From a virus (taxonomy: Duplodnaviria > Heunggongvirae > Uroviricota > Caudoviricetes): a DNA stretch of 5,573 nt. The translations under genes were made by a program, and so were the position numbers. Position 1 is the first letter of the stretch. The number at the start of each line of letters is the position of its first letter. The DNA is taken from IMG/VR virus record IMGVR_UViG_2526164693_000014; one strand, 5' to 3'. Shown one piece after another: positions 1 through 5,573 of the stretch. The notes beneath the pieces were generated by a model that saw only the letters and a list, made by a program, of their open reading frames with translations, did no database searches and was not told the DNA's origin.

Positions 1-206
1 CGATCTACAGATTCCCCGAAACGCTTCTCCATAAATAATTCATAGGCTGCCCGTTCATCCGATACTGATGCCAGTGATGCCAGTGCAATTTTTAATGCGG
101 TAAGCATGTTGTTTTGATCTTCATCGAGTCCGAACGGTATTTCATCCCGTGATGACTCAATTCCGGTAATCGTGTTCTGTAGCCATTCTTTGGTTAATTC
201 AGTCAT
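1..206 (-). CDS. Hypothetical protein, 5'-partial in window (start inside, continues past the left edge)
   Basis: Hand translation from ATG at 206..204 gives MTELTKEWLQNTITGIESSRDEIPFGLDEDQNNMLTALKIALASLASVSDERAAYELFMEKRFGESVD with no stop before the edge; an in-frame TGA lies two codons upstream of the ATG. Not in the ORF track because it has no stop in the window. No family recognised. Confidence 0.5.
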   Translation of the reverse strand, partial: MTELTKEWLQNTITGIESSRDEIPFGLDEDQNNMLTALKIALASLASVSDERAAYELFMEKRFGESVD

Positions 207-2157: not shown

Positions 2158-2823
2158 TCAGACAAAACCGGCCGCCTTCCGGCGCTCATATTCCTGTTTC
2201 AGCAATTCAATTGGCGTTGGCCCTGGCGGGCGTTTGGGTGCTGCCAGTTGTCGCCGGACTGGCGGAACACTGAGGCCATTACCAACATGCTTTGCCCATT
2301 TCGTCAGTTGCCGTTCTGCAAGCCGTTTTAATTCCCCTTCGGTCATCTGGCGCTCAATCCCCTTTGAACGCATCTCGAGGCAAATGTGATACAGCACAGG
2401 CTGAGACCACGGGTACTTATCACTTCCGTCGTATCGCCAGGACTCATTGCGCCAGCGGCGGTACTCCTCCATCACAGCATCCACCGTCAGACCGAATGGA
2501 TTGGCTCCGCTTTTCGAAATCAGTGCCACAAACTCAGCCAGGTCCGGAGGCCATGTTTCACCCGCCCGGCAGCGGTCCATGCACTGGCGGCAGACCTGCC
2601 GGATTTGCTGCTCAGTCATCGCGCCAATCTGTGCAATCCAGAGCTTCGAAGGTGCGGCCCCGTTCTTCTGGATCCAGCGGTTCGAATAAACCACCCCCAT
2701 GAGTTCCCACAGCTTCCAGGCCGTTTCCGTCGCTGATAAATCCGTTTTCACGTTCCCACTGCTCACGTGCTGCCCGAATTTCCTGAACTGCCCGTGATGC
2801 GGTGCCACCTGGTGCTGCTGCAT
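2158..2823 (-). CDS. Phage replication protein P-like (lambda P family, DnaB helicase loader)
   Basis: Recalled similarity to lambda P: [18 protein letters not shown]...[13 protein letters not shown] here versus lambda ESYPWKSNAHYWLVTNLYQNMR...TDAELRRKAADEL, plus an upstream MTEQQ segment. The ATG at 2823 has an AAGGGG RBS with 6-nt spacer but overlaps the O-like gene by 212 bp out of frame; in-frame ATGs at 2700 and 2619 are alternative starts. Confidence 0.75.
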
Positions 2824-3652: not shown

Positions 3653-4175
3653 ACGCCCCCCTGGCAGACATTTGTTTATCTGCAAAGTAATATTGGTATT
3701 GCTGACGATACGCGTGCTTGAAAGCAATAGCTTTTTCTATAAGCTCGTCAGTCTCACGTTCCACAACAACTGGATCCGCAAAAAGCAGCCCGGACTCCAC
3801 CACATCGCCATATTCTTTGTTTAACCCGGCGATCATGTACGTAATGCTTTTTCCGTCAGTAATTTCACAATACAATCTGAAATCGCTGATCCGGATAGCC
3901 TCCATAATTGCCGGAATCAGCGCCGTGAATTTGTCACGCTTATCTCTGGTGTCGATAGCTTTCCAGCGTTCGAATATCTTCACCCGGTTAACGCCCAGCG
4001 CCCGTTGATCAACCTCGCCATCATTAAACGTGACGCGTTGAACATCGATGTTCGGGCGTTCTTTCAGAGCCCAGAATGCTTCCGTGATTAATATCGTCGC
4101 CTGCTCCTGTGTCATTCCTGGTCGGCATACCCAGGTATCCAGAGCCTCACAAACCTGTTCAGTGGTGATTTTCAT
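3624..4175 (-). CDS. YdaT-like protein in the cII position (183 aa)
   Basis: Sits between the Cro-like and O-like genes. The segment FTALIPAIMEAIRISDFRLYCEI resembles the Rac-prophage YdaT segment as I recall it; this is from memory and unverified. Overlaps the Cro-like gene by 17 bp and the O-like gene by 29 bp. Confidence 0.65.
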   Translation of the reverse strand: MKITTEQVCEALDTWVCRPGMTQEQATILITEAFWALKERPNIDVQRVTFNDGEVDQRALGVNRVKIFERWKAIDTRDKRDKFTALIPAIMEAIRISDFRLYCEITDGKSITYMIAGLNKEYGDVVESGLLFADPVVVERETDELIEKAIAFKHAYRQQYQYYFADKQMSARGAYEYRCTTMG

Positions 4176-4386
4176 TGTTCAACCGCCCCGCCCGCTTTGC
4201 CTTACGATATTCGTCATAAACTTTGGGGTCGTACTGAAGTTCCCCGCCGGATGCCTCTTGCAGGCGCATCGCGCGACCTTCAGGAACCAGTTCCCCCCAT
4301 GCAGCAACGCTTGCCAGCCTAACTCCTGCGACATTGGCAAGCTTTGTTTTGCTGCCAAAAAACGCTATAGCATCAATTTTCAACAT
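4159..4386 (-). CDS. Cro-like small DNA-binding regulator (YdaS/DicC-like, 75 aa)
   Basis: Divergent from the repressor gene across a 76-bp operator region; the pattern AGVRLASVAAWGELVPEGRAMRLQEASGGELQYDP fits the Cro/YdaS-type fold family; first gene of the leftward operon. Confidence 0.75.
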   Translation of the reverse strand: MLKIDAIAFFGSKTKLANVAGVRLASVAAWGELVPEGRAMRLQEASGGELQYDPKVYDEYRKAKRAGRLNNENHH

Positions 4387-4462
4387 ATCGAAACCCTTAG
4401 ATTTTCCTAAGGAAACTAGATCGTAGAGAAACCTAAGTCAAGAAAAATTAGAATTACCTAAT
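4387..4462. promoter_or_regulatory. Divergent operator/promoter region (OR-like) between the Cro-like and repressor genes
   Basis: Perfect inverted repeat CCTTAG-N6-CTAAGG at 4395..4412 and a third half-site CCTAAG at 4432..4437. Plus strand: -10-like TAGAAT at 4449..4454 only 8 nt before the repressor ATG, with no SD. Minus strand: TTGACT (-35) at 4441..4436 with a weak -10. Confidence 0.6.
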
Positions 4463-4870
4463 ATGAAAAACGAAACCTTCGGTGCTCGCCTCTTATACAG
4501 GCGAAAAAAATTAAAACTGTCTCAGGCCGCATTAGGTAAGCTGGTCAAAGTCGCTCACGTAACAATTTCTCAATGGGAAAGAGATGAAACACAGCCAGCG
4601 GGGAAGAGATTATTCGCACTGAGCCAGGCGCTTCAGTGCTCGCCGACTTGGCTTCTTTTTGGAGATGAAGATAAGCAACCAGGCGAACCGATCCCAGATA
4701 ATCAGCCAGTCAATCTGACAGAAGATCAAAAAGAGTTGCTTCAACTGTTCGACGCACTGCCTGAGTCAGAGCAAAAGGCTCTGTTGTCAGAGATGCGTGC
4801 TCGAGTTGAGAATTTCAACAAACTTTTTGAAGAACTACTCAAAGCTCGCAAAAGAAGCGCAAATAAATAA
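4463..4870 (+). CDS. dicA: Prophage immunity repressor, DicA-type HTH_XRE regulator (135 aa, cI functional analogue, no S24 peptidase domain)
   Basis: N-terminal HTH (LSQAALGKLVKVAHVTISQWERDETQP); CSPTWLLFGDEDKQP and the C-terminal NFNKLFEELLKAR tail match my recollection of E. coli Qin DicA; same length; divergent from a Cro-like gene. The symbol means DicA-family homologue, not necessarily the K-12 locus. Confidence 0.85.
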   Translation: MKNETFGARLLYRRKKLKLSQAALGKLVKVAHVTISQWERDETQPAGKRLFALSQALQCSPTWLLFGDEDKQPGEPIPDNQPVNLTEDQKELLQLFDALPESEQKALLSEMRARVENFNKLFEELLKARKRSANK

Positions 4871-4900
4871 CCCCCCTTTTTTTCGCAACTCTCTGTAATA

Positions 4901-4933
4901 AAAAGCACAAACTTTCAAATACTTGTGTTTTTT
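4901..4933 (+). terminator. Weak candidate intrinsic terminator downstream of the repressor gene
   Basis: Short stem GCACAA/TTGTG with a 12-nt loop followed by a T6 run, flanked upstream by an A-tract. The stem is short and AU-rich, so this is tentative. Confidence 0.3.
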
Positions 4934-4941
4934 ACATCAAG

Positions 4942-4998
4942 AAGCTTAGGTTTTTCTACACAAAAAGCTTGACCATAACTCTTAGGCTATTCTAAATT
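4942..4998 (+). promoter_or_regulatory. pL-like rightward promoter candidate with operator-like half-sites (OL-like)
   Basis: TTGACC at 4969..4974, then a 17-18-nt spacer and CTAAAT/TAAATT at 4992..4998. CTTAGG half-sites at 4945..4950 and 4982..4987, the second inside the spacer; same motif as in the OR-like region. Confidence 0.45.
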
Positions 4999-5133
4999 CT
5001 ACTCATCAAGACACCGCACGGTGTTCTCAGCAAACAGTTCCGCTACCCGGCGTTAAGGGGAAGCAGAGGATTTCTCAGTGGGCGAGTCAAACATCAGAAT
5101 GGAAGGCGTCCAGGGATCAGCAAAGAAACAGCG

Positions 5134-5433
5134 ATGGCGCTTTATATTGATATCAGCGCCATTGCCGGACAGGTAAGAGTTATCAGAGCGGTAACTAAGC
5201 GGTATGCGCCTTTACTTCAGAAAGTCTCTGGTGAGTGCACCGAAGATATTGTCAACGATTTCGTCATCGAACTGCGAGGACTCATCTTCAGTTACAAGGT
5301 GACCACAATTTTTGCAGATGGCTCCCGCGAAACTGTCAGAGCCCTGCGGCTTAAAGGATGTGTCAAAGACTTAGCCACCACATTCTGGGCAAGAAAACTT
5401 GATTGTATTCATAACCAATTTCCTCTCGAGTAA
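5134..5433 (+). CDS. Hypothetical protein (99 aa), first long ORF downstream of the pL-like promoter; coding status uncertain
   Basis: Only ORF of 60 aa or more on either strand in 4871..5505; weak RBS (AAGAAACAGCG); several rare AGA/GGA/CGA codons; no N-like arginine-rich motif; no family recognised. Confidence 0.4.
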   Translation: MALYIDISAIAGQVRVIRAVTKRYAPLLQKVSGECTEDIVNDFVIELRGLIFSYKVTTIFADGSRETVRALRLKGCVKDLATTFWARKLDCIHNQFPLE

Positions 5434-5505
5434 CAGACCCCTCAGAGGATACCACCTCGCCTGACGTGGTTAAAAAGCAGGCAACGCTAACCACAAGGAG
5501 CCGAC

Positions 5506-5573
5506 ATGCAGAAACGAGACCCCGTCATCATCGCGCCAGACTATACCGATGATGAACTTTATGAGTGGATGCA
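5506..5573 (+). CDS. Hypothetical protein, 3'-partial in window (start only: MQKRDPVIIAPDYTDDELYEWM...)
   Basis: ATG at 5506 preceded by AAGGAG with a 5-nt spacer; open to the right edge. Function unknown. Confidence 0.5.
   Translation, partial: MQKRDPVIIAPDYTDDELYEWM

Follow-up and report, generated by a model that had tools for sequence, protein, structure and literature searches.

Two putative DicA-type operators around the -35 box of a dicBp-like promoter in prophage Sp9 of Escherichia coli O157:H7

The hexamer CTTAGG recurs on both sides of a repressor gene in a virus sequence of 5573 bp (IMG/VR record IMGVR_UViG_2526164693_000014; this whole stretch is called the window below), and two of its copies lie at a promoter-like site between positions 4942 and 4998. 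The locus raises the question of whether these copies belong to operators, and whether one repressor could act through them at both divergent early promoters.

From position 4380 to its end (1194 bases), the window is 100% identical to genomes of E. coli O157:H7. It represents the immunity region of prophage Sp9 in strain Sakai, a lambda-like phage whose insertion site adjoins ompW. Sp9 looks like a near-complete lambda-like prophage with T3SS effector genes, and an antirepressor gene is annotated in it. The open reading frames of the window and their Pfam matches are those of a lambdoid immunity and replication region, with YdaT-like, O-like and P-like genes to the left. The phage records of near relatives label the two regulators dicA and dicC, and the locus is homologous to dicC-dicA-dicBp of the cryptic prophage Qin in strain K-12, with the same gene order (dicC, dicA, then ydfABC-dicF-dicB). 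The Qin switch has been described previously (Bejar and Bouche 1988; Yun 2012; Ragunathan and Vanderpool 2023). In it, DicA acts as repressor of dicC as well as of the dicB operon, and dicBp rises 22-fold on deletion of dicA (PMC10448788). The two regulatory genes of the window and the sites between them are as follows.

4159-4386, minus strand: dicC-like Cro-type gene (75 aa) that opens the leftward early operon; Pfam P22_Cro, E=3e-13
4395-4412: O1, a perfect palindrome, CCTTAG-attttc-CTAAGG
4413-4441, minus strand: putative leftward dicC-type promoter (pR analogue); -35 box TTGACT at 4436-4441, 17-nt spacer, -10 box TAGTTT at 4413-4418
4421-4438: O2, TCGTAG-agaaac-CTAAGT, one mismatch in 10 core positions
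4446-4463: O3, a weak site, AATTAG-aattac-CTAATA, two mismatches
4463-4870, plus strand: DicA-type repressor gene (135 aa) with a P22-C2-like helix-turn-helix; Pfam HTH_3 only

CTTAGG is present exactly four times in the window, at 4406-4411 (-), 4432-4437 (-), 4945-4950 (+) and 4981-4986 (+), and all four copies fall within the two non-coding regions that flank the repressor gene. Both copies of the dicC-dicA intergenic (OR) region are on the minus strand; those of the promoter region are both on the plus strand, i.e. direct. The first-pass annotation of this DNA had described the latter two correctly as direct rather than inverted and as shared with the OR-like region. It had placed the first at 4945-4950, where the match is exact, and the second at 4982-4987, one base too high. 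It had also taken the number of copies to be beyond chance, with about three expected. Shuffled sequences do not bear this out: they give 1.74 copies on average, and 19 of 200 contain four or more, so that the whole-window count is not significant. The placement is less easily obtained. With shuffles of local composition, the probability of two or more copies is p=0.005 for the 76-bp spacer between dicC and dicA and p=0.011 for the 263 bp 3' of dicA, and both together occurred in one of 20 000 such shuffles; this placement statistic is weakened by a look-elsewhere control, in which any hexamer occurs at least twice in both regions in 17.6% of shuffles.

The pattern CTTAG-N6-CTAAG is more informative. 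With at most one mismatch, it matches the window three times (0.07 expected; none of 200 shuffles), at O1, at O2 and at a promoter-proximal site at 4981-4996. With at most two mismatches there are six matches (1.66 expected; two of 200 shuffles), and all but one fall in the two regulatory regions. At up to three mismatches the pattern is uninformative (13 matches in the window versus 15.4 expected). A search for the OR palindrome across the prophage had been suggested in the first-pass annotation; in 50 kb of Sp9, only O1, O2 and the proximal site match with at most one mismatch. Unlike the hexamer count alone, the 16-bp palindrome pattern reaches significance, in the window as well as in these 50 kb. 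The sixth of the matches with up to two mismatches, at 5184-5199 (+), reads CAGAGCGGTAACTAAG, lies inside an open reading frame of 99 aa and does not exceed what chance predicts (1.66 per window).

The region around the two plus-strand copies contains the following features.

4899-4934, plus strand: likely terminator of the repressor gene, an A/U-rich 12-bp hairpin followed by a T run; predicted fold -9.6 kcal/mol
4944-4961: putative distal operator (OL2-like), GCTTAG-gttttt-CTACAC, two mismatches to the core pattern, 7 bp 5' of the -35 box
4969-4998, plus strand: putative pL-like promoter (dicBp homologue); -35 box TTGACC at 4969-4974, 18-nt spacer, -10 box TAAATT at 4993-4998
4980-4997: putative proximal operator (OL1-like), TCTTAG-gctatt-CTAAAT, one mismatch to the core pattern, filling the spacer and overlapping the -10 box
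5005, plus strand: predicted transcription start, the A of CATCAA

TTGACC/TAAATT agrees with the consensus at 9 of 12 positions and, in a consensus scan, is the only promoter-like site of the plus strand between the repressor gene and the next open reading frame. The copy of CTTAGG at 4981 lies within its spacer, as had been noticed before. In both cases here, CTTAGG supplies the left half of an 18-bp palindrome, imperfect and of the form CCTTAG-N6-CTAAGG (6-N6-6 geometry). The two sites lie on either side of the -35 box. CTAAAT, the right half of the proximal one, also serves as the -10 box, and its degeneracy is attributable to this second role. The right half of the distal site, CTACAC, is poor (3 of 6 positions). 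The centres of the two sites are 36 bp apart, which is not an integral number of helical turns. Of the earlier description, the half-site CTTAGG stands, as does the suspicion that its partners would be degenerate (CTACAC and CTAAAT, 6 bp 3' of each CTTAG); the 18-bp 6-N6-6 site, the use of a right half as -10 box and the precedent of Qin had been missed. Three operators are given for dicBp in the literature (PMC10448788) and two are recognisable here: a search with up to two mismatches for a third operator at the promoter detected none beyond the distal and proximal sites.

The predicted start is 7 nt beyond the -10 box, in a CATCAA motif that nearly all related loci keep at this position. It resembles the start of lambda pL, cACATCAG. 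The hairpin at 4899-4934 follows the stop codon of the repressor gene and precedes the distal operator; its fold has z=-3.56, and 2 of 200 shuffles fold equally well. Flanked by an A run and a T run, it is a likely bidirectional intrinsic terminator, which a simple terminator scan missed because it has few G-C pairs. Judging by the predicted fold, it probably ends the repressor transcript just 5' of the distal operator and so insulates the repressor gene from the promoter.

The sequences of 33 unique CTTAG-type promoters were compared. The distal block is near-invariant as cTTAGgTtTT.cTAca, including the CTAC of the right half; the -35 region is kept as cTTgAc, and the proximal site is near-invariant as cTTAGgtTAttCTAA; cTTAGgtTAttCTAAaTt is kept as well. 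Both promoter hexamers are conserved, and the 6 nt that separate the -35 box from the proximal site are free to vary.

At the other side of the repressor gene, O1 is the best inverted repeat of the intergenic region, without mismatches. It is the positional equivalent of Oc of K-12, with which it aligns (TTGTTAGTCATAACTAACAA, TTGTTAG-tcataa-CTAACAA), and across 20 unique CTTAG-type sequences its core CCTTAG and CTA are invariant, the last bases of the right half not. O2 and O3 are likewise conserved. The spacer of the leftward dicC-type promoter contains O2, which overlaps the -35 box of this promoter as well; O3 abuts the start codon of the repressor and aligns with TTTAGC-attag-CTAAC of K-12. 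The leftward promoter was read from the sequence and assigned by homology to dicCp of K-12, whose layout it shares; it scores below the threshold of the consensus scan. The start site of dicCp itself has been mapped by 5'RACE, and its -10 box overlaps Oc (PMC3441716). In K-12, the Oc palindrome is a binding site of DicA in vivo, and one base substitution is enough to abolish the binding; the weaker OR sites Om and Oa are not bound alone in the same in vivo assay (PMC3441716), so that degenerate sites may need cooperativity or may be inactive.

Ninety-nine related loci, encoding 35 distinct DicA proteins, were gathered with a DicA alignment. In type after type, the OR palindrome recurs twice 3' of the repressor gene, one copy just 5' of a TTGxxx -35 box and the other in the spacer between this box and the -10 box. 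Both positions carry the OR half-site of the type in question (GTTAG, TTGAG, TAACTT and others), in K-12 as in at least eight further immunity types of the DicA family. Half-sites of individual types (L numbers designate loci) are listed here.

L003, L007: TGTTAG...CTAACA
L017: TTGTTAG...TTAACAA
L010, L011: ATTGAG-tttt-CTCAAT
L009, L013: TTGTTGAG
L019: TAACTTTTGTTA
L080-L083: CTTAG

This was tested formally in 18 representative loci, the downstream region of each being searched with a probe from the same locus, its 18-mer from the Oc position. In most types the two best matches of the probe 3' of dicA are 35-36 bp apart. For 10 of the 18 representatives, no shuffle out of 500 equalled the result, and for the window 10 of 500 did; the probe clearly failed in three (L015, L019 and L079), apparently because O1 is degenerate there or the probe is offset from the palindrome. 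In a cross-matrix, probes match promoters of their own specificity group. Independent IMG/VR loci, found via the leader RNA (see below), present the same layout with further specificities. By these comparisons, the putative OR and OL operators and the repressor helix-turn-helix co-vary across immunity types. RegulonDB holds a DicA site at dicB of K-12, which according to a 2020 study is of low evidence and unknown location (PMC7567609); co-variation over at least eight specificities pins down where DicA-type repressors act at dicBp-type promoters.

Over its full length, the repressor of the window (ECs_1765) shares 63% identity with DicA of K-12, most of the changes falling in residues 1-60. 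The Cro-like protein (ECs_1766) shares 83% with DicC, and it is chiefly in the N-terminal helix-turn-helix that these two differ. Residues 2-69 of the repressor match the N-terminal domain of P22 C2 (PDB 1ADR, 2R1J and 3JXB; E=1e-21), and Pfam detects no S24/LexA-type cleavage domain (HTH_3 only). The half-site tracks the start of helix 2, CTTAG occurring with SQA and GTTAG with TQR; half-sites TTGAG and TAACTT pair with other helix-turn-helix sequences. Helix 3, VAHVTISQWE, is identical between some GTTAG repressors (L003, L007, L015 and L017) and CTTAG repressors (the window and L080-L083). As the same recognition helix accompanies different half-sites, specificity at operator position 2 seems to be set outside helix 3, and the choice between CTTAG and GTTAG may depend on the helix-2 residues (SQA versus TQR) rather than on the recognition helix. 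Such heteroimmune pairs of operator and helix-turn-helix lend themselves directly to a study of the specificity code in P22-C2-like repressors.

Very probably, then, 4942-4998 is a control region of the OL/PL type, in which two operators for a DicA-type repressor flank the -35 box of a sigma-70 promoter homologous to dicBp. We infer binding and repression in Sp9 from the anatomy of the sites, their statistics, homology and the co-variation across the family. A dimer of the adjacent repressor would bind both operators through its P22-C2-like helix-turn-helix; binding as a dimer to 18-bp sites of two-fold symmetry is most likely, given the homology to the P22 C2 domain solved on operator DNA. 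The same repressor would also bind the three sites of the dicC-dicA intergenic region. On the proximal site it would exclude RNA polymerase, on O1 and O2 it would block the leftward dicC-type promoter, and by binding both regions it would silence both divergent early operons at once. That a single repressor controls both promoters had been proposed in the first-pass annotation, and the homology to Qin, the same positions of the sites and the co-variation of OR and OL half-sites argue for it. The Cro-like DicC probably uses the same operators. Induction proceeds via the antirepressor Rem in Qin (PMC10448788); an antirepressor, or instability of the switch, would likewise be expected to act in Sp9, where the repressor has no LexA-like domain.

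Other readings of the two promoter sites were weighed. It is unlikely that only the proximal site (4980-4997) works, the distal CTTAGG being vestigial, very weak or of another use, for example as an A/T-rich upstream promoter element. The poor right half of the distal site, its location in an A/T-rich stretch just 5' of the -35 box and the failure of DicA to bind the degenerate Om and Oa alone in K-12 (PMC3441716) would agree with such a proximal-only arrangement; against it, the near-invariance of the distal block in the 33 unique sequences extends to the right-half CTAC, and most other types have a matching distal site at the same distance of 35-36 bp, often as a near-perfect palindrome (L003, L007 and L017).

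Still less probable is that the sites serve mainly the Cro-like DicC, or a host factor mimicking DicA, instead of the DicA-type repressor. ChIP-seq of DicC in K-12 gives peaks flanking dicA on both sides, with the motif TT(A/C/T)G...C(G/A/T)AA, and the same preprint reports that the host factor YjdC can repress DicA targets (PMC11430063); moreover, the helix-turn-helix of DicC differs between Sp9 and K-12. In K-12, however, dicBp is derepressed by deletion of dicA and not of dicC (PMC10448788), and use by DicC complements control by the repressor rather than replacing it, since both proteins share operators in lambdoid switches. Mere chance recurrence of a hexamer in A/T-rich intergenic DNA, without regulatory meaning, would suffice for the four copies as counted in the window and is not foreign to the look-elsewhere result given above, but it is effectively refuted by the palindromic context, the statistics at the scale of the prophage, the conservation and the cross-type co-variation.

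The predicted transcript begins with a second conserved element.

5007-5063, plus strand: conserved structured leader RNA, with a hairpin at 5011-5024, a single-stranded stretch CUCAGCAAACAGUUCCGC, a CCC/GGG helix and a possible CGC/GCG pseudoknot

Across divergent loci, the hairpin takes the form xxCAC-nGCACn-GUGxx and the single-stranded stretch reads CUCAG(C/A)AAA(A)C(A)GUUCCGC, in which GUUCCGC is invariant; the second helix, CCC(C)/GGG(G), encloses a loop with GGCG. Between Sp9 and Qin the leader is almost invariant despite the divergence of the promoters. The G-U pairs indicate an RNA on the plus strand. A covariance model (R1) finds the leader with E=2e-17 in the window and with E values from 1e-18 to 3e-3 in all relatives, with one copy per locus and one in 50 kb of Sp9. 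Copies in relatives include the following.

L002, 3441-3498: leader RNA
L007, 2015-2080: leader RNA
L080, 2048-2104: leader RNA
L083, 2138-2198: leader RNA

MAFFT and RNAalifold on the raw leader sequences, which gave one helix only because of misalignment, were replaced by a manual and a covariance-model alignment. Both were fitted to the structure, so that their figures lean towards it: in the manual alignment 92% of cells pair, five pairs have double changes and the co-variation score is 0.259 versus 0.118 in shuffles (0 of 500 as high), and in the covariance-model alignment 92.6% pair versus 80% in shuffles (0 of 500), with co-variation in all four pairs of the second helix. An Rfam scan of 4800-5573 returned noise only, no family matching the leader.

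A pattern scan of IMG/VR for the leader yielded at least 120 stretches, and 80 loci (L104-L183) were examined. The leader is present in 56 of them, as 33 unique sequences, in most cases right after a pL-type promoter with CATCAA-like start motifs. The first genes 3' of it belong to mutually unrelated families.

A nut site with an N-like partner was considered and set aside: the first open reading frames are of unrelated families, and on inspection no obvious N-like arginine-rich N-terminus was seen. Like put of HK022, the leader is a structured RNA of about 60 nt directly 3' of a pL-type promoter, with no N gene at that place; it differs from put in being a single copy, without a putR-like second one, and in its proposed fold of a hairpin plus a small pseudoknot. 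R1 detects nothing significant in the pL-nun/putL region of HK022 and the sequences are unrelated by eye, so the leader was not classed as a put-like RNA; the supplement of the put paper does not contain the leader motif either. In a role analogous to that of put, the leader could be a new class of protein-independent cis-acting element for elongation or antitermination, with which polymerase would pass the DicF terminator and reach dicB, recE, xis and int. Another possibility is that it acts as a 5' stabiliser of the transcript. Either role, antitermination or stabilisation, would be compatible with where it lies and with the lack of an N gene. The proposal of a pL cassette with an uncatalogued cis-acting leader RNA (5005-5063) and the separate one of a CTTAG/GTTAG specificity set by helix 2 are tentative, and we rate them as doubtful. 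If the former is true, the operator-flanked promoter would be the front end of a conserved pL cassette, whose leader RNA follows promoters of many immunity specificities and stands before unrelated first genes.

Two other leader-like sequences were encountered. One, at 2245-2285 (-) inside the P-like gene, reads CTCAGTGTTCCGCCAGTCCGGCGACAACTGG (CTCAGTGTTCCGCCAGTCCGGCG); it mimics the leader core and could form two small helices. It lacks the 5' hairpin, is not matched by the covariance model and is probably due to chance. The other is a second leader type in Symbiopectobacterium, Rahnella and E. whittamii (L015, about 1960-2030, and L016-L019), at the same relative position, with the form GTTCTGAC-NN-CCGG-AAAGA-CGGC and a GAAAGA hairpin loop reminiscent of lambda boxB; R1 misses it (best E=2.7, in L019).

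In Sakai, the promoter of the window is followed by a hypothetical gene, a ydfC homologue, a DicF-like small RNA, a dicB-like division inhibitor gene, a large recE-like exonuclease gene, xis and int, in this order of the rightward early operon. Where ydfA and ydfB usually come first, Sp9 has other open reading frames instead, and a recombination breakpoint lies directly 3' of the leader RNA, between GGGGAAG and CAGAGG. The annotated hypothetical protein of 99 aa (5134-5433, plus strand) has no Pfam match and is unrelated to ydfA and ydfB; a possible open reading frame of 32 aa (5079-5177, plus strand) starts with GTG at 5079 and begins MGESNIRMEGVQGSAKKQRWRF. Outside the window, the DicF homologue of Sp9 is found at 7236-7285 (+) of locus L001, which is Sp9 of Sakai (43.5 bits, E=5e-8); default Rfam annotation would miss it, since the gathering threshold is 48 bits. 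At 55-204 (-), the same locus has a sok antitoxin RNA (103.9 bits), part of a module of the hok/sok type, which adjoins the gene of the Sp9 'phage maintenance protein'. A terminator scan of the downstream operon was uninformative, with 9 terminators versus 7 expected.

In an O157:H7 prophage with the effector genes nleA, nleH and nleF, the promoter would control the DicF and DicB division inhibitors and, with them, the genes for excision and recombination. Knowledge of its operators bears on how the effector-bearing Sp9 prophage stays silent.

The closest known system is the Qin switch. The window has a short repressor of 135 aa, homologous to DicA and without a cleavage site, a divergent Cro-like dicC gene, and a 76-bp spacer between them with one perfect palindrome and two weaker sites. 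A putative promoter with boxes aligning with those of dicBp stands directly 3' of the repressor gene and leads into the ydf, dicF and dicB operon, and the same operator half-site overlaps promoter hexamers at both promoters. The operators share their positions, the 6-N6-6 geometry and the distal-proximal spacing of 35-36 bp with Qin, and the leaders of the two are nearly identical although the promoters diverged. At the distal position, Qin has TGTTAG-ctatag-CATACA, compared with GCTTAG-gttttt-CTACAC in Sp9; at the proximal position it has TGTTAG-tcatgg-CTAATC, between TTGACC and TAATCT. The immunity specificity of Qin (TGTTAG-N6-CTAACA) is not that of Sp9, whose half-site is CCTTAG instead of TGTTAG. 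With different half-sites and diverged helix-turn-helix sequences in both repressor and Cro, Sp9 and Qin are presumably heteroimmune. As far as we found, the literature holds no description of the CCTTAG specificity or of the exact placement of the two promoter sites.

P22 operators are 18 bp long with 9-bp half-sites, and TTA at positions 3-5 is common to them and to the Sp9 half-site. The half-sites otherwise differ, ATTTAAGAT in P22 and CCTTAGATT in Sp9, as do the residues at the putative contact positions of C2 (R20, S31 and N32 in P22; S, A and H in the Sp9 repressor). In lambda and P22 the operators of the leftward promoter form three adjacent sites, whereas Sp9 has two recognisable ones at its promoter of this type, 36 bp apart and bracketing the -35 box, and its repressor is without the RecA-cleavable C-terminal domain. 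In kind, this is the standard lambdoid plan of the textbooks, familiar from Qin, lambda and P22: at each of two divergent early promoters, several imperfect palindromes serve a single repressor as well as a single Cro and overlap the -35 and -10 boxes, and the two regions mirror each other in orientation.
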